From a virus (taxonomy: Duplodnaviria; Caudoviricetes): a DNA stretch of 64,000 nt. A model generated the notes under the pieces. The model did not search any database and was not told the DNA's origin. It saw nothing but the letters and a program-made list of their open reading frames with translations. Below are positions 7,326 to 57,074 of the stretch, one piece after another (positions within the stretch are counted from its first letter, which is position 1; every line of letters starts with the position of its first letter). The stretch covers positions 24,266-88,265 of IMG/VR virus record IMGVR_UViG_3300026549_000062. One strand, written 5' to 3'. Position numbers and translations under genes: made by a program.

Positions 7326-8397
7326 CCTCCCCAATCTCCTCATCTACATAGATATCGTTATCTTCTGAAAATGATTTACATAGAGATCCCTCAGAAGAGA
7401 GTTTGTTATTATTATCAAAATATCTTAAAAATAAGAAAGTATTATCATTGTTAGGAGTAAATACAATAACTTTCCTATCATCATAAAACTCTCCTACTTT
7501 ATCCATGTTATCCATGAAAGAGAGTATATTTTTTCTTGTATTCATTCTCCCATTACTTACTAATTTACAAACCATCTTACTATTTAAATCAGGCATCTTA
7601 TTATTTAATATGATACCAAGATAAGCTATATGAACAGGATCTGCTAAAGAATCCTTAATATAATCCATTACAGTTATACTTTTAGATATATTCATCTTTC
7701 TCATTAATTCTTCTACCAAATCCCAAGTATTAGAATAAATCTTTGGTATAAATGAGAAATTCTTTAATAAACTCTTAGCTTGATTATCTAATGAATCATC
7801 AGCATCTTTGAATATCTTATTTATATAATCATAATTGAATGGTTTGATCTTAAAGAGTTCATCTTTACATTCTCTTATTATAGCAGCTGCATTATAAATT
7901 GTTATTATATTATAAACTTCATTGATAGATCTATAAAGAAGTTTTAAATCTATCTTAAACTTTACAGCCATTTGAGGTCCTTCTTGTTTCTCTAGATCTG
8001 TGAGTTTCTTATTCATATTTCTAGAGATTACATCTAGAGATAGATTATGACTATTCTTTTCTCTATCTGTAGTATTCATGCTCAGTTCAGTGCATAAGCA
8101 GAGAAGAATAACAGACCTCATCTTTTCAAACCATTCTTCGTCTTTTTTAAATTCTCCTAATTCACTTACTTTAACAGAATCTTTTATTACATTATCTATA
8201 TTGAATACAAATTTGTTAGTATCGAATCTTATCATACTAGAAATTCCAACAACATCTTTAAACTCTATTGTTTTATTTGATACTATAGTATTTGCCAAAT
8301 ATGTATCTCTTATTAGATTATAGTATCTTCTTGTAGAATACTTAAGGCTATTTAATTCTCTTTGAGTTAATTGAATCATTAAGATCTCTTCTTTCAA
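7309..8397 (-). CDS. Hypothetical protein
   Basis: 362-aa ORF; start uncertain (8397 or 8379). Confidence 0.7.
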   Translation of the reverse strand: MKEEILMIQLTQRELNSLKYSTRRYYNLIRDTYLANTIVSNKTIEFKDVVGISSMIRFDTNKFVFNIDNVIKDSVKVSELGEFKKDEEWFEKMRSVILLCLCTELSMNTTDREKNSHNLSLDVISRNMNKKLTDLEKQEGPQMAVKFKIDLKLLYRSINEVYNIITIYNAAAIIRECKDELFKIKPFNYDYINKIFKDADDSLDNQAKSLLKNFSFIPKIYSNTWDLVEELMRKMNISKSITVMDYIKDSLADPVHIAYLGIILNNKMPDLNSKMVCKLVSNGRMNTRKNILSFMDNMDKVGEFYDDRKVIVFTPNNDNTFLFLRYFDNNNKLSSEGSLCKSFSEDNDIYVDEEIGEDEIRG

Positions 8398-9444: not shown

Positions 9445-9954
9445 TTATTTATGATTCTTATTATTGTTATGATTATTGTAGTTCTTGCTATTATTGTTAT
9501 TCTGTGAAGTAACAGTAGCCTTGATATCAGCTTTGACCTCTGTTTTAACTTCTTCTTTCTTTTCTTCCTTAGCTGGAGCAGTTTCTTCTTTAAGAGCAAC
9601 TTTTACATTATTCTGTTTATTGTTCTTCTTACTGCTCTTACCATAAAAAGAGACCGTATCAACAACTTTACCAGACTGATCTGTAATATTAACATTATTC
9701 TTTGAATAAGACTTAATATTGGTTGCAGCAACAGCACTCTCTGGAACAGTCGAGATACCATTTTCTGTGTTGTAATTATTAAAGTCTAGAGGAACTGTTT
9801 TACCACCAAGAAGAACCTCTTCTACTAGAGCCTTGTTTTCTATGCAGACTTTAATAGCTTCTGAATCTAGAATAACACCAACACAATTACCGGCAAATGG
9901 AATACCATTAATGGAGAACGGGCGATAACATGAAATATTTACCTTCTTAAGCAT
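9445..9954 (-). CDS. Late protein with small N-terminal domain and low-complexity tail; paralog of 54672-55187
   Basis: Shared GN...K..IE...E.L...L..NY..NG pattern; late promoter 9987-9998. Confidence 0.65.
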   Translation of the reverse strand: MLKKVNISCYRPFSINGIPFAGNCVGVILDSEAIKVCIENKALVEEVLLGGKTVPLDFNNYNTENGISTVPESAVAATNIKSYSKNNVNITDQSGKVVDTVSFYGKSSKKNNKQNNVKVALKEETAPAKEEKKEEVKTEVKADIKATVTSQNNNNSKNYNNHNNNKNHK

Positions 9955-17275: not shown

Positions 17276-17923
17276 ATGGTATACTATGTGTTAAAAGAAA
17301 TCAAAAACAATAAGTTTAAAAATGTTGCGTTCTTTAAAGATAGAGAAGAAGCTGAGAAGTTAAGAGACAAATTAGAAAATATATCTATAAATGGTTCTGA
17401 TTGGTGGTATGAAACTGATAAAAAGAATCATATTGACCATTCTGTATTAAGGGGACAAAATATAACTTATTATAAAATCGAATGTGAAGGATTTAATTTG
17501 TTAAATAGTGCTGATGATTATGTAATTGAAGAACAAAAAGATTCTAAAGAAAAGTACAAATATTTATTAATTAATATTTATGCTTTAAGATCAGAGAAAG
17601 ATAAAAATGAATTTGAATTAGATATGTATTCTGAAAGATGTGAAGAGATTGAGCATAATTATATGATTAAGAGAGTTACAGAGCAGGATATTTCTCTGTT
17701 TGGTATAGATATAACTAGAAGATGCCTGATGTATTCGGATGCTATTGATGTTAGAGATATCAAAACATTTAATGAATTAGATAAGAAAGTATCAAATATA
17801 GTAGATGAAGGGCAAGCGCACCTTACTTTAGCTATATCAAGACGTTATCACTCTAAAAATATTATCAATCTTATTGATACCCAAAAGATGTTGTATACTA
17901 AATATGATTATATAGATGATTGA
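17276..17923 (+). CDS. Hypothetical, member of the F..xEEA N-terminal motif family
   Basis: Paralog of 18009-18428 (F..xEEA.KL..xLE.ISIN...WWYETD). Confidence 0.75.
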   Translation: MVYYVLKEIKNNKFKNVAFFKDREEAEKLRDKLENISINGSDWWYETDKKNHIDHSVLRGQNITYYKIECEGFNLLNSADDYVIEEQKDSKEKYKYLLINIYALRSEKDKNEFELDMYSERCEEIEHNYMIKRVTEQDISLFGIDITRRCLMYSDAIDVRDIKTFNELDKKVSNIVDEGQAHLTLAISRRYHSKNIINLIDTQKMLYTKYDYIDD

Positions 17924-18008
17924 TTAAATTTAAAAAATACTAAAAATGTATGAATAAAAATATATCTATTGTCTAAATGGAAACAAAACTATCTAGGAGA
18001 AAATAACC

Positions 18009-18428
18009 TTGAAAGTATTTGTGTTAAAAAAGACTGTAAATAATAAAGAAGAAATTATAGCACTTTTTAGAAATAAAGAGGAAGCGCAAAAATTAAAAAA
18101 TAGATTAGAATTTATTTCTATCAATGATCCTAATTGGTGGTATGAAACAGATGCTCTTTATAGTAAATGTGGAGGGAAAACTGATAAATTAAATTTTATG
18201 TATAGTAGAAATATTCCATATTATAAAATTGAGGATAAAGAATATACATTATTTGACGATGCTGATGATTATACTACTGGAGATATTAAAATTTGCCCTT
18301 CTAAAAAATTTCTAATTATTTACGTAATTGCTGTTAAAGATAAAGTAGAAAAAATTTCTCATACCATTTTCAAAGGGTATAATATAAAAGAAATAAAATT
18401 GATAAGAGATTATGATGATTTAGATTAA
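18009..18428 (+). CDS. Paralog of 17276-17923, possibly C-terminally truncated
   Basis: Strong similarity over ~90 aa; shorter; followed by broken frames. Confidence 0.65.
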   Translation: MKVFVLKKTVNNKEEIIALFRNKEEAQKLKNRLEFISINDPNWWYETDALYSKCGGKTDKLNFMYSRNIPYYKIEDKEYTLFDDADDYTTGDIKICPSKKFLIIYVIAVKDKVEKISHTIFKGYNIKEIKLIRDYDDLD

Positions 18429-32227: not shown

Positions 32228-32481
32228 TTTGTTTTCCTCCAGTTTCAAATTGTCTATTAGCAACTCCTATATTACTAATAGAACTAGTCTCTGATATTTG
32301 TATAGAATAGATATATTTATCCCATACTTATATCTTACTCAGTAATCTCATTTCATTTTCACTATCCTCCTTAGAATGAAATGAGATATAGTATAATTGA
32401 ATAGATATACTATTCACTAATATAGTATGTAAATGAAAAAAATATTAAAAATCCGCAGACTATACAAATCTGCGGATTTCA

Positions 32482-37655: not shown

Positions 37656-37809
37656 TTAGTTGACCTCCCCATAAATACTTCACTTACCTTCATGTTTCAG
37701 TTTTTAATTCATTGGTATATTTTGACAAAAGATACTGGGGTAGAGGAATATCCTCTACTCCATATAATTTTGTATAAAATTATAAAATTTGAATTATATA
37801 CTATAATTG

Positions 37810-38111
37810 TGCATAAGAGGAGAAATAAGTTTAGGAGGTGATCTAATGACTTATCTAAACTTTCGTAGCAAAACATTTAAAAAGCCACCGTTTGTTAAAA
37901 GATTAAGGATGAGAAAAGCAAGTCCAACCCTTCCAAAGTGACTACTTATTATAGCCATCCTTATATCTGAATAAAAGCAGTAAATACTCCTGTATCATAT
38001 GCGGTAGTATAACCATTACTGTGATTTGTTACTTGTGATAGATACACTAAGCAGGTATCTATTTCTGAAAAGCTCAAATTGATAGAGTTACTGCTGATCT
38101 CCTCTTATGCA
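37810..38111 (+). ncRNA. Panhandle structured RNA element 1 (contains small ORF)
   Basis: Perfect 14-bp terminal inverted repeat TGCATAAGAGGAGA; 3' motifs CTAAGCAGG and GTTACTGCTGATC shared with element 2. Confidence 0.6.
37846..37941 (+). CDS. 31-aa basic peptide MTYLNFRSKTFKKPPFVKRLRMRKASPTLPK
   Basis: AGGAGGTG RBS held in a hairpin; inside element 1. Confidence 0.5.
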   Translation: MTYLNFRSKTFKKPPFVKRLRMRKASPTLPK

Positions 38112-38139
38112 TTATTTTTCTGTTATACTGATAATAAAA

Positions 38140-39861
38140 TTAGAATACTGGATCTTTTAGTTTATTTTTATCATCAGGAAGAACAAGGGTTAGATTATAA
38201 AGAGATTGTATAGCTTCCTTAGAAGCATTCATGCTATTCTCACCACCAAGGGAGATATAATGTTTCTTAGAGTTAATCTCTTTTAACATTTCATCATTTG
38301 CCTCTATAGAGAATATACCTTTAGATGATACTGTATCACCATCGAAGTCACCACCAATAGAATCTAGGCGAACGTTATTTGGTAGTGCTACATCAACAAA
38401 CTTGTTTGTAGTATTTTTATTGATATCCTGTATACGAATCTTTGGGTATTCTCTATAAAAAGTATTGTTTACTATCATAGGTTCTGTATCTATTGTAGAT
38501 ACAACTTTTATTTTAGCAGGGAACTGGTTCCAGTATGTATCTACAGGGAAACGTGTTATAAGAACTGCTTTATCCTTAGTGATTTCTATAGCAGCCATGT
38601 AAATTAGATCACACCAAGTAAGAGGGCGTTCTTTAATATAGAAATTTAAACCATCTGTAGTCATAGAAGAACCAGTTTTTGTTTTCTCTATTATAGCTTC
38701 ATCTTCTACATTATATCCTTTAAATATAAGATAAGGTTTAGCTCCTTTAGGCATTCTTATATTTTCTTCTATAGGAGCTTCTATAGCAACAAAACGGTTA
38801 CTCATACCATGCATGAATCTATCTAATTCTTTCTTTATTCTATCATCAGAATATACTTCTCTCCAGTCCTTAATATGAACTGTATGGGTTTTCTTATTCT
38901 TAGGATCTACTGCTAATACGTCATCTGTATCAGTCATATTATTTTCAAACCATTTACGAATATGATATAGCATATAAGGATAGAAATTAGCACATAGAGC
39001 TGCTATAGGAAGCCCAACAGAATCCAGATCTACATCAATATCTGATAATGATTCTTTGCGAAGATTTTGTGTACAGATAACTAGTCTTGCACCCCAGTCG
39101 AATGATTTCTTCATTCCTGAACGTCTAATAAGACCAAGTTTTCTAGATAGACCAGTAGCTGGAGATTCTACACCGTATCTATCTCTACCAAATGCAAGAA
39201 AGTCATATACGGCTACTATAGAATCTTGTATTCTTCCTCTTAAGGAACCTGAAAGAGATAGACCATAATCATCTGATTCTTTCAATGCATTACAATCTCT
39301 TATAATAGCATTATACATTTCATTTATTTCACCTACAGTAACCTTACCAGGTTTATCTGTAGTAACGTCTCTGTATCCAGCTGGTATTACAAGAAAATTA
39401 TCTATAAATAGTTTCTCTCTATATTTTTCTAAGAATGTAACCTTTACATTTCTCTTATCAGAATCTGTTTTAGGAATTTTTAGATCTTTGATAATTTTTC
39501 TGAGATACTTAATACCAGTTTCTCCATTTGGGTCTTGTTCTAACTTACCAGTTTCTTTATTGACTTTAAAGTTGTACATTTCATAAGCACAGAGCTTTAC
39601 ATTCTTATCTAATCTGCACCATATCTTGTATCCTAATGGATGCATGAATGTTTCCCCAGCAAGATGTATATATCCAAATATAGAAGTTCTATCATCTTTA
39701 GTAATGCCAAAAATTTCATTAGAAAGAAGGCCACCAGGAGCTGGCATATTTTTACTACTAAAGAATACAGGGTCTGTTATCTCTTTTACATCATTTACTT
39801 TTATAAAACCATCAACATCAAGAGGTTTTAACTCAAGATGCTTATTTTGTGTTTTAGCCAC
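38140..39861 (-). CDS. rpoC: Multisubunit RNA polymerase beta' N-terminal half with catalytic loop; probably virion RNAP
   Basis: PGGLLSNEIFG, FGYIHL, VIPAGYRD, KKSFDWGARLVI, ITRFP, GGDFDGD; GTG start after GGAGG; late-type promoter 39889-39900. Confidence 0.9.
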   Translation of the reverse strand: MAKTQNKHLELKPLDVDGFIKVNDVKEITDPVFFSSKNMPAPGGLLSNEIFGITKDDRTSIFGYIHLAGETFMHPLGYKIWCRLDKNVKLCAYEMYNFKVNKETGKLEQDPNGETGIKYLRKIIKDLKIPKTDSDKRNVKVTFLEKYREKLFIDNFLVIPAGYRDVTTDKPGKVTVGEINEMYNAIIRDCNALKESDDYGLSLSGSLRGRIQDSIVAVYDFLAFGRDRYGVESPATGLSRKLGLIRRSGMKKSFDWGARLVICTQNLRKESLSDIDVDLDSVGLPIAALCANFYPYMLYHIRKWFENNMTDTDDVLAVDPKNKKTHTVHIKDWREVYSDDRIKKELDRFMHGMSNRFVAIEAPIEENIRMPKGAKPYLIFKGYNVEDEAIIEKTKTGSSMTTDGLNFYIKERPLTWCDLIYMAAIEITKDKAVLITRFPVDTYWNQFPAKIKVVSTIDTEPMIVNNTFYREYPKIRIQDINKNTTNKFVDVALPNNVRLDSIGGDFDGDTVSSKGIFSIEANDEMLKEINSKKHYISLGGENSMNASKEAIQSLYNLTLVLPDDKNKLKDPVF

Positions 39862-39978
39862 ATTAATACCTCCAATACATGAAGTCATTATGGAAATGTC
39901 TCGAACACAAAAAATACGGTAAAGGAAAAAATGAGGCAGGTTTTACCCTGCCCCATTTCTCATGTGCTTTGCCGATCC

Positions 39979-55248: not shown

Positions 55249-56301
55249 TCATAGAAGTCCTATAATATATCCTTCTTTTATATCTATAGGATCTTTGAAG
55301 AAAGAATCAAAATCAAACAGTTTATCTTTTTCAAACTTTTTACTAAGTTTATCCATATCATTTTCAAACTTCTTTAGTTTAGATTTATTTATATATTTAG
55401 GCCTTATAGTATAAACTGCCTTTACTTGTCTATCTGTTTCTGGGTCATCTATTATTTCTTCTCTACGTTCTATTGAGTATTCTTCTTCATCTAAACAAGA
55501 AAGTTTATCCTTTATCATATCATAAAGAAGTTCTTGATTCTCATGTATTCTATATACTTTAGAATCATTATGGTCAACAACATTCATTTTTAGTTCTGCT
55601 AATATACTAAGAAGCTGTCCAAAGTCATTATTAGTCAATCTAATATAAGAATATGTTCCCATATTAGTAATCATCTTTTCTTTAGCAACTTGTTTGGCTC
55701 TATATATTGGCATACTACGAGTATTTGGATTATTCCCTCCATCTTTTACTTCTATGATAAGATTGTAAGGAATTATAAGAAAATCAGTTATCCAATGAAG
55801 TTTCTTTCCTTTAAATTCATACTCAAGTATAGGCCCTGGTGCTATAACTTCATTTGATTTATACTCTAATACTTTATCAAGAAACTCCATCAGTTTCTTT
55901 TCATAAGTACCTGTATAAGTCATTTCTTTACCATCAGACCATTTATACTTTCCAGATATCTTTCTATGCGCTAACATCTTTTCCTGGAATTTAGGATCAT
56001 CAAGAAGATGTGGCTTATTATACACTCTCATCATACGTTCGTGATAAGTCTTTTTTATTTGTTCATAACACTTTGGATCTCCACAAAGTCTATTGTATTT
56101 CTGTCTTTTCTCATTCCATTTAGTTGGTTTACCACATACAACACAATTACCATGACCATGTTTACCATTTACTACATCATATACCATTCTATATGGTGTA
56201 TACCCTAATGGTAATTGGTCTTTATGCTCTTTTTCAATATGCTTTAAAAGTTTTATCTTATTGAATCTTTCATCACAATATGGACAGTTAAAATTCTTCA
56301 T
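55249..56301 (-). CDS. Zn-finger plus TnsA/T4 gp4-like PD-(D/E)xK endonuclease
   Basis: CPYC..H..H, CVVC..C; YTGTYEKKL, WITDFLI..IIEVKDG; late promoter 56325-56336. Confidence 0.75.
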   Translation of the reverse strand: MKNFNCPYCDERFNKIKLLKHIEKEHKDQLPLGYTPYRMVYDVVNGKHGHGNCVVCGKPTKWNEKRQKYNRLCGDPKCYEQIKKTYHERMMRVYNKPHLLDDPKFQEKMLAHRKISGKYKWSDGKEMTYTGTYEKKLMEFLDKVLEYKSNEVIAPGPILEYEFKGKKLHWITDFLIIPYNLIIEVKDGGNNPNTRSMPIYRAKQVAKEKMITNMGTYSYIRLTNNDFGQLLSILAELKMNVVDHNDSKVYRIHENQELLYDMIKDKLSCLDEEEYSIERREEIIDDPETDRQVKAVYTIRPKYINKSKLKKFENDMDKLSKKFEKDKLFDFDSFFKDPIDIKEGYIIGLL

Positions 56302-56446
56302 TAGATAAACCCTCCCTCATTTATTACAAAAATGTTTTCGGAAGACAAAAAAGTACGAGGAATAAGCATACTGCTTTTATCCCCGCACTCTTTTTAATAA
56401 TATTAATTTAGACAAATCTAAGTTCTTATTGAATCTTATTGAAGTT

Positions 56447-56562: not shown

Positions 56563-56667
56563 TTACTTTTTACCAAACAGACTGATCAAGATTACATACA
56601 CATCAGAATCATCTGCTGCTCTGTAAATTGATTTATTCTTTTCAACAAACATATTTAACATATTCAT
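56563..56667 (-). CDS. 34-aa peptide MNMLNMFVEKNKSIYRAADDSDVYVILISLFGKK
   Basis: RBS GAAAGGA. Confidence 0.45.
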   Translation of the reverse strand: MNMLNMFVEKNKSIYRAADDSDVYVILISLFGKK

Positions 56668-56707
56668 GATGGTTTCCTTTCTTATAATCACTTTAACTTA
56701 TTTATAA

Positions 56708-56998
56708 GCAATATAAGATGAGGATCAGCAGTAACATATAATATGCTAATAGATGTATACATCCTGCTTAGCGTGCATACTATAAGGAATTCGGAATTTA
56801 GCTTATGCTAATTTTTTGTTTCGATAAGTATATCTTACACCGTTTTTAGTAAGCCATTTATCAAGGATCTGGGAATTGGAGATCCGTACAGATCCTAAAT
56901 ATTCAGGCTTATCTCTATAGATAGGATTCTTACCGTTTACGTTATGGTAAACCATAAGACATTACCTCCTTTCTATGCATTTCCTCATCTAATATTGC
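56708..56998 (-). ncRNA. Panhandle structured RNA element 2 (contains small ORF)
   Basis: 16/17-bp terminal inverted repeat GCAATA(T/A)TAGATGAGGA-type; same 3' motifs as element 1. Confidence 0.6.
56803..56955 (-). CDS. 50-aa basic peptide MVYHNVNGKNPIYRDKPEYLGSVRISNSQILDKWLTKNGVRYTYRNKKLA
   Basis: AAGGAGGT RBS 8 nt upstream; inside element 2. Confidence 0.55.
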   Translation of the reverse strand: MVYHNVNGKNPIYRDKPEYLGSVRISNSQILDKWLTKNGVRYTYRNKKLA

Positions 56999-57074
56999 AC
57001 AACTATAGTATGTAAATAAAATGAGTAAAAATTACACATAAAAAGGATGGGCTACACCATATGGTGTAGCCTTT

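Follow-up and report, generated by a model that had tools for sequence, protein, structure and literature searches.

End-paired early mini-gene units in an AR9/PBS1-like jumbo phage: a possible fold-back messenger with a late antisense off-switch

Introduction

The fold-back messenger RNAs (mRNAs) of type I toxin-antitoxin systems (PMC6733600) and the late antisense transcripts of phage AR9 are the closest mechanistic analogues of el2, a 291-nt unit with paired ends at 56708-56998 (-) in the stretch of viral DNA analyzed here. This stretch, the window, comprises 64,000 nt, positions 24266-88265 of the 88,265-bp IMG/VR virus record IMGVR_UViG_3300026549_000062, and coordinates are those of the window unless the record or another locus is named. 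An earlier note on the same DNA had described el2 and a second unit, el1 (37811-38110 (+)); a third copy, elC, lies before the window start. We read the three as paralogous early mini-gene mRNAs of an AR9/PBS1-like jumbo phage that combine a hok/aapA-like fold-back with a late antisense off-switch, and we give this reading about an even chance of being right.

Like hok/Sok and aapA/IsoA (PMC6733600), the units have the form of an mRNA of a few hundred nucleotides with a small open reading frame (ORF), a very stable helix that closes the 5' end on the 3' end, and a cis antisense promoter, here a predicted one. Unlike those systems, they encode a hydrophilic basic peptide rather than a membrane toxin, and their closing helix pairs a pseudo-Shine-Dalgarno tract rather than the real ribosome-binding site (RBS). 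The antisense RNA predicted here is full-length and would come from a phage late promoter, and the carrier is a lytic jumbo phage. Membership of the type I class fails on the character of the peptide and on RBS sequestration.

The promoters resemble those of AR9 (Lavysh et al. 2017, PMC5312081), in which an AT-rich early consensus, AAATATATATTAT-N6-G(+1), is followed six nt on by the starting G, and in which late transcription starts at the last base of AACA-N6-T(A/G). Seven of the late promoters of AR9 produce antisense transcription, for the most part at late stages of infection, and the most abundant antisense RNAs lie over g125 and g126 (PMC5312081). Those two genes were considered as analogous cassettes and rejected, as they are late structural genes, annotated in the AR9 record as virion protein and tail sheath protein. 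An end-paired mini-gene family is not described in the AR9 study (PMC5312081).

The PeSLs of the T4-like phages RB49 and phi1 are a stem-loop terminator plus an early promoter that head scattered small ORFan genes; they act as insulators between early expression and late genes, and they open a way to shuffling by recombination (Arbiol et al. 2010, PMC2839356). The arrangement of hairpin and early promoter is present here as well, but the resemblance is functional only. PeSL promoters are of the sigma-70 kind, whereas those of the units are of the phage RNA polymerase (RNAP) type, and PeSLs are without the 5'-3' transcript pairing, the conserved 3' untranslated region (UTR) module and the convergent late promoter. 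Sigma-70-like matches over the early promoter amounted to one weak match (9/12) in el2 and none in el1. Miniature inverted-repeat transposable elements (MITEs) and the ultra-small MPME mobile elements of mycobacteriophages are also small, with terminal inverted repeats and dispersed copies, in the case of MPME within a phage genome, as here. In contrast to both, the repeats of the units differ by copy, no target duplication was seen, there is no transposase-like ORF, and homology extends past the repeats.

The record covers an estimated one third of a genome, and the G+C content is about 30%. The gene at 38140-39888 (-) encodes a split RNAP beta' piece bearing the DFDGD motif, with best matches at 31-33% identity in Listeria phage LPJP1, Bacillus phage Goe21 and Staphylococcus jumbo phages; these matches indicate an uncultured phage with a distant relationship to the AR9/PBS1 group. 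Near-identical contigs, one of 312 kb, were found in pig and wolf gut metagenomes and in other gut samples; the phage is present, among others, in ENA ERZ28656509 and ERZ940847 and in Logan SRR33322331.

Three paralogous units

The record holds three units rather than the two of the earlier note, since a six-frame search with a peptide profile returned exactly three. The third, elC, lies 6.5 kb ahead of the window start at record positions 17727-18110 (+) (locus L008:727-1110), flanked by late genes of 805 aa and 315 aa, both on the minus strand. Its parts include the hairpin, the early promoter, a 13-bp terminal helix of a third sequence, the RBS and a 40-aa ORF, and at its 3' end hairpin 1 carries the loop GCUAAGCAG on a third stem, CUGCUG abuts the 3' arm, and a U-tract comes next. 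The parts of the two units in the window, with P1 as the terminal helix, are as follows.

57050-57071, both strands: bidirectional terminator-like hairpin GGCTACACC-ATAT-GGTGTAGCC, 5' of the el2 promoter (0.3 expected in shuffles)
56999-57020, minus strand: el2 early promoter TTTATTTACA-TACTAT-AGTTGT, predicted +1 G at 56998
56982-56998, minus strand: el2 P1 5' arm GCAAUAUUAGAUGAGGA, purine-rich and Shine-Dalgarno-like
56970-56964, minus strand: el2 RBS AGGAGGT, with the ORF from ATG 56955 to stop 56803
56755-56780, minus strand: el2 hairpin 1, stem GUAUGCA/UGUAUAC (one G.U), loop with CUAAGCAG
56733-56747, minus strand: el2 hairpin 2, AGCAUA-UUA-UAUGUU, without counterpart in elC
56725-56731, minus strand: el2 CUGCUG(A), with CUGCUG at 56731-56726 and CUGCU complementary to the loop AGCAG
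56708-56724, minus strand: el2 P1 3' arm UCCUCAUCUUAUAUUGC, pyrimidine-rich and anti-Shine-Dalgarno-like
56695-56706, plus strand: el2 convergent late-promoter-like motif AACTTATTTATA, predicted start 56706, facing back over the unit
37736-38124, plus strand: el1 whole unit, part order as in el2
37736-37762: el1 upstream hairpin
37799-37804, plus strand: el1 early promoter TACTAT, predicted +1 G at 37811
37811-37823 and 38098-38110, plus strand: el1 P1 arms, 13/13 paired
37846-37941, plus strand: el1 RBS and 31-aa ORF
38038-38062, plus strand: el1 hairpin 1
38071-38089, plus strand: el1 hairpin 2
38091-38096, plus strand: el1 CTGCTG; a U-tract is present in the unit
38113-38124, minus strand: el1 opposite-strand late motif AACAGAAAAATA

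The anatomy given in the earlier note for el2 was borne out. The 291-nt unit with its 16/17 terminal inverted repeat is present, as are the RBS (AAAGGAGGT, 7 nt 5' of the ATG), the ORF for a basic 50-aa peptide (56803-56955 (-); isoelectric point 10.1) and the 3' motifs shared by the two units, CTAAGCAGG and GTTACTGCTGATC, each of which occurs exactly twice in the window, once per unit. With up to 2 mismatches allowed, shuffled sequence gave about 1.25 matches to the 3' motifs. In the record as a whole, CTAAGCAGG occurs a third time, at position 8187; this copy sits inside a gene and was rejected as chance.

Early promoters and predicted RNA ends

The promoter string that the earlier note had matched between the units is there, as ACTATAGTTGTGCA at 56996-57009 (-) and ACTATAATTGTGCA at 37800-37813 (+), but most of it is a phage-wide early consensus, TTTACA-TACTATARTRGTGA. 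TTTACA-TACTATARTRGTG is common to about 20 sites in the record, and a G stands six nt past TACTAT in 16 of 20. By sequence analogy, the units thus have what marks an AR9-type early transcription unit, namely an AT-rich extended consensus with a start six nt on, usually at G.

Under the AR9 rule, transcription of all three units would start at a G that is also where the pairing of the terminal helix begins, and, counted from this G, the 3' arms extend to +300 (el1), +291 (el2) and +299 (elC). A strong duplex between the 5' end and downstream sequence (-22 to -24 kcal/mol) was found only at these 3 of the 20 early-promoter-like sites of the 88-kb record, at an almost equal distance from the start in each, whereas the other 17 had duplexes of only -7 to -15 kcal/mol. 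No other single observation argues as strongly for a role of the repeat in RNA as this coincidence of the helix edge with the predicted RNA 5' end.

Other predicted early transcripts, at record positions 9659 (+), 56680 (-) and 70767 (+), open with a hairpin at +1, for example GAAUAGAG...CUCUAUUC. The first of these lies about 14.6 kb ahead of the window start, and the other two correspond to window positions 32415 and 46502. Because hairpins stand right at +1 in several early transcripts, 5'-end protection seems to be a general habit of the early RNAs of this phage, and el1, el2 and elC seem to be its long-range version.

RNA pairing and covariation

The arms of P1 have three unrelated sequences and still pair, at 13/13 in el1, 16/17 in el2 and 13/13 in elC. 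The el2 terminal repeat GCAATATTAGATGAGGA (56998-56982, -) pairs with 56724-56708 at -26.9 kcal/mol (first 24 nt against last 45 nt; -23.5 kcal/mol in the scan of all promoters), and el1 P1 pairs perfectly over 13 bp in RNA and 14 bp in DNA. A U-tract follows the closing helix in two of the three copies.

In hairpin 1, the stems AUAGAUAC, GUAUGCA and UGAUUAU are all different and the loop CUAAGCAG is constant; the MAFFT alignment places the strands of el2 hairpin 1 out of register with the other copies. The covariation that the earlier note had seen in hairpin 2 was confirmed (AGCATA/TATGTT versus AGCTC/GAGTT, each with one G.U), and the orthologue lineage of locus L015 adds a compensatory change of U-A to C-G, together with a change of G.U to A.C. 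On the ORF strand there are four G.U pairs, as compared with one A.C in one orthologue lineage. All three units fold slightly better on the ORF strand than on its complement, with z-scores against shuffles of -5.8 and -4.8 (sense and antisense) for el2, -4.8 and -4.15 for el1, and -6.35 and -5.55 for elC. The view that selection has acted on RNA pairing and not on transposase binding was therefore supported: the P1 and hairpin-1 sequences differ and still pair, the helix starts at the +1 G, the G.U pairs are on the sense strand, homology runs past the repeats, and no target duplication was seen.

The loop AGCAG and the downstream CUGCU match at 5/5 Watson-Crick pairs in all copies, and a change of loop C to U in two orthologous loci (L018 and L019) leaves a G.U with CUGCU. 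The loop of hairpin 1 and CUGCU(G) could form an H-type pseudoknot abutting P1, which is plausible in geometry. The arrangement of CUAAGCAG and CUGCUG occurs in the record only in the three units. No Rfam family reached its gathering threshold in the window, and a permissive scan gave only chance-level matches, none above 21.5 bits, where the thresholds are 33 or more. Self-cleavage and circularization found no support.

The long-distance helix of the units differs from the Shine-Dalgarno-sequestering 5'-3' interaction of hok and aapA in that it pairs the upstream Shine-Dalgarno-like tract, and in the minimum-energy fold of elC the RBS is unpaired. The GCUGAUC plus pyrimidine arm (56708-56731 (-); 38091-38110 (+)) is loosely like GGAUCACCUCCUU, which we take to be the 3' tail of 16S rRNA. 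This likeness raises the idea of an anti-Shine-Dalgarno mimic.

Opposite-strand late-promoter motifs

An AR9-type late motif lies on the opposite strand 0-2 nt beyond the 3' arm in all three copies, and reads AACAGAAAAATA in el1, AACATAAAAATG in elC (orthologues ...ATA) and AACTTATTTATA in el2. The last of these had been called a near-consensus late promoter, and it is indeed one base off AACA-N6-TA. In the L015 lineage the N6 spacer of the el2 motif is altered and the fixed positions are kept. Across the record, the exact motif stands 18-64 nt ahead of 11 of 82 crude gene starts, compared to 3.4 +/- 1.9 in random windows (about 3-fold); the motifs at 37685-37696 and 56325-56336 are among these.

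An antisense RNA from this motif is predicted to span the whole unit and reach the upstream hairpin. The el2 upstream hairpin scores as a terminator on the antisense strand too; it would end the upstream minus-strand gene and would also end the plus-strand antisense RNA. That of elC looks like an antisense-strand terminator by reading of the sequence alone.

Peptides

The earlier note had called the peptides unrelated and had pictured them as swappable cargo on a conserved RNA scaffold. Neither claim survived comparison of the three ORFs, which share a homologous N-terminus (el2 versus elC, 7/13 identical, pairwise E 5e-4). The units are thus paralogous copies of a single small gene that have diverged, rather than a scaffold that carries unrelated inserts. 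The M-x-Y-x-N start remarked on in that note is part of a longer shared N-terminus, M-x-Y-H/L-N-V/F-x-G/S-K/R, in peptides that begin MVYHNVNGKN, MIYHNFKGRN (elC) and MTYLNFRSKT. Tyr, Asn and Gly are retained through synonymous codon differences (TAC/TAT, AAC/AAT, GGT/GGA), and the first 10-13 codons are conserved as amino acids, while the bodies cannot be aligned past about codon 13.

The peptides, of 31 aa (el1), 50 aa (el2) and 40 aa (elC), are hydrophilic and basic, with a grand average of hydropathy (GRAVY) of -0.86 to -0.99, isoelectric points of 9.9-12, a best 15-residue hydropathy window of at most 0.01, and no membrane segment. Orthologues of the el2 ORF are 98% and 88% identical to it, and the comparison with the L015 lineage includes a two-base change of CGG to AGA, both Arg. 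Among 5.8 billion proteins, the relatives found were el2 and elC orthologues only, and the 31-aa ORF of el1 was not among the proteins that this search of protein collections returned. The peptides had no match in Pfam or PHROGs and no usable match in the ESM Atlas. AlphaFold2 modeled the 50-aa peptide as a three-stranded beta-meander with moderate confidence (predicted local distance difference test 74, predicted template modeling score 0.49); Foldseek against the PDB returned no match at E <= 0.001, and so gave no functional lead. A fast-evolving, basic and phage-lineage-specific profile is as expected of host-takeover or anti-defense factors.

Distribution in related phages

Orthologues in gut metagenomes retain the units. 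In contrast, relatives with 60-72% identical flanking proteins mostly have no room for a unit at the el1 and elC sites. In four of five phages with an RNAP piece 62-66% identical, the gap after the RNAP gene is 3-70 nt, and in two relatives a gap of about 120 nt stands at the elC site. The slot of the fifth phage (L003:5690-5960 (-)) is occupied by a different antisense early unit that has a TATACTAT promoter, a pair of tiny ORFs and a strong terminator. Small early cassettes seem to have a hotspot at this position behind the RNAP gene. The units at el1 and elC are lineage-specific insertions, and the three units form a real family, specific to this lineage, of structured early mini-gene transcription units. 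Recombination at promoter and terminator modules, as in PeSL cassettes (PMC2839356), would be a reasonable route of dispersal.

Searches beyond the record were negative. Blastn of el1 and el2 against 50,697 phage records gave no relatives, an exact motif-pair scan of viral contigs gave nothing, and peptide patterns had no confirmed match in viral and JGI metagenome contigs. The motif pair was not found in five related records, of which three are complete jumbo genomes, and the peptide profile was not found in the three complete ones. A structural descriptor (loop AAG[CT]AG, stem of at least 6 bp, plus CTGCT) recovered the three copies in their own record and only two weak, chance-like matches in the complete relative G005. 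As far as searched, the module of CUAAGCAG and CUGCUG appears specific to this phage lineage.

One locus of that relative, G005:C1:147040-147340 (+) (locus L034), has a terminator hairpin and an AR9-type early promoter, TATATATTAT-N6-G, ahead of an RNA of about 240 nt. The Shine-Dalgarno-like first 12-14 nt of this RNA (GGUAAGGAGUGU) pair with its end at -22 kcal/mol, as compared with -9.5 kcal/mol for the median of 254 promoter-like sites. Neither a convincing ORF nor a late motif on the opposite strand is present, and the RNA may be a non-coding cousin of the design.

Proposed working and alternatives

In the reading that we favor, each copy would be a self-contained cassette made of a terminator hairpin and an early promoter of the virion-RNAP type, with a transcript about 300 nt long. 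The first 13-17 nt of the transcript would pair with its last 13-17 nt, and between them the RNA would carry a strong RBS, a hydrophilic basic peptide of 31-50 aa with the shared N-terminus, and a 3' UTR module in which hairpin 1 displays CUAAGCAG and AGCAG is able to pair with CUGCU beside the closing helix. The stacked, closed ends would protect and delimit the early mRNA. Later, a non-virion-RNAP promoter just beyond the 3' arm would give a full-length antisense RNA back to the upstream bidirectional hairpin, and this RNA would silence the peptide late in infection through duplex formation and probably RNase III cleavage. The unit has the look of an inbuilt RNA timer that governs small early proteins. 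This proposal draws on the anatomy and paralogy of the units, their covarying helices, the positions of their motifs and the empty sites in relatives, all of which are observed; transcription starts and ends, translation and the antisense RNA are predictions by analogy with AR9, and the pseudoknot and the role of the peptide are inferred.

If true, an end-paired, protected early mRNA with a late antisense promoter over it would make a compact off-switch, and the anatomy of the cassette would give a way to spot mini-genes overlooked by gene callers. The matter bears on how jumbo phages with two RNAPs silence many tiny unannotated early proteins without host factors. More tentatively, and with the chances rather against it, the closing helix, the CUAAGCAG hairpin and CUGCUG may be one stacked pseudoknotted device that, together with the convergent late promoter, controls the timing of small early proteins and their lifetime, in a design that recurs with other sequences across AR9-like jumbo phages. 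Such a device would be an undescribed class of phage gene-timing cassette, and the loop/CUGCUG module is a precise mutational target.

Several findings weigh against the timer. The closing helix leaves the real RBS free, unlike in hok and aapA, and local hairpins do not mask the RBS in a conserved manner. The el2 helix has no U-tract after it, the el2 late motif reads AACT rather than AACA, and the el1 upstream hairpin scores as a terminator on the sense strand only. There is an A.C in hairpin 2 of one lineage and another in P1 of the orthologous locus L016, and the pseudoknot has no true covariation because both of its partners are otherwise invariant. Constraint on the peptides is weak, with synonymous to non-synonymous changes of 4:6 (el2) and 1:7 (elC) between orthologues, and the C-terminus of elC is shifted by poly-A frameshifts (5 to 7 A in orthologues, which yields three C-termini). 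AR9, the source of the analogy, is only about 31-33% identical in the RNAP subunit.

A rival reading is that the units are ordinary small early genes, in which the end-to-end repeat merely insulates or terminates a cassette placed antisense in late operons, the AACA motif is incidental or serves neighboring late genes, and there is no regulatory RNA device. Cassettes of terminator and early promoter with ORFans are known in T4-like phages (PeSLs; PMC2839356), another small early unit occupies the position behind the RNAP gene in the relative L003, a U-tract follows the helix in two copies, and AACA-N6-TR is found 129 times in the record. We nevertheless judge this account unlikely. The CUAAGCAG loop and CUGCUG are invariant in three paralogues whose stems and ORF bodies have diverged past alignment, the arrangement is nowhere else in the record, the late motif keeps a constant offset of 0-2 nt in 3/3, and the gene downstream of el1 already has its own late promoter at 37685-37696. 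The opposite emphasis would make the units non-coding or dual-function structured RNAs, in which the ends and the 3' module are functional, for example as a scaffold that binds protein or RNA, or as a decoy of anti-Shine-Dalgarno type, and the ORF is secondary or untranslated. A near-perfect RBS at the correct spacing with an open frame in 3/3, the conservation of the first 10-13 codons in amino acids with synonymous changes, the two-base Arg-to-Arg change in an orthologue and the lack of an Rfam family match speak against it, and it seems improbable to us even though the fold z-scores are strong, the helices covary, the body of the peptide evolves near-neutrally and is hit by frameshifts, the arms are Shine-Dalgarno-like and anti-Shine-Dalgarno-like, and the early-promoter RNA at about 147.1 kb in G005 has a 12-14-bp end-to-end helix with no convincing ORF.

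A true type I toxin-antitoxin system would require a host-toxic peptide, with the fold-back mRNA as a translationally inert store and the late antisense RNA as antitoxin. The small ORF, the 5'-3' long-distance interaction and the putative cis antisense promoter resemble those of hok/Sok and aapA/IsoA (PMC6733600), and there is a likeness to the prophage-borne 3'-overlapping systems of Bacillus; but the peptide is hydrophilic and basic (GRAVY about -0.9, no membrane segment), where such toxins are as a rule hydrophobic or membrane-active, and is without a match in Pfam and PHROGs, the long-distance helix leaves the real RBS unmasked, and addiction is of no obvious use to a lytic jumbo phage. 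We regard such a system as quite improbable. It is very unlikely that the units are MITE-like mobile DNA with the inverted repeats as transposase or recombinase sites. They do have terminal inverted repeats at a length of about 300 bp, three dispersed copies, unit-free sites in related phages, and an endonuclease gene (phrog_15137) 0.5 kb downstream of el2. However, there are three different arm sequences in one genome, no target-site duplication was seen when the flanks of the three units were read directly, and homology runs past the repeats (el1 versus elC, 20/20 bases 5' of the promoter core and 14/16 across the U-tract and the late motif). In addition, the repeat begins at the predicted RNA 5' end, and the G.U pairs favor one strand.

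Neighboring genes

The product of the gene at 55249-56301 (-) is a zinc-finger endonuclease of 350 aa (phrog_15137, E 1e-44), and the gene has an AACA-N6-TA of its own at 56325-56336. Residues 39-48 of the protein (MVYDVVNGKH) resemble the start of the el2 peptide at 7/10 residues (pairwise E 0.047; 21/30 DNA bases, aligned by hand), a match that we judged to be probably chance. Right after el2 is an ORF of 35-42 aa at 56563-56691 (-) with its own RBS, which is also called in orthologous contigs. As el2 is without a U-tract, its transcript may continue into this ORF.

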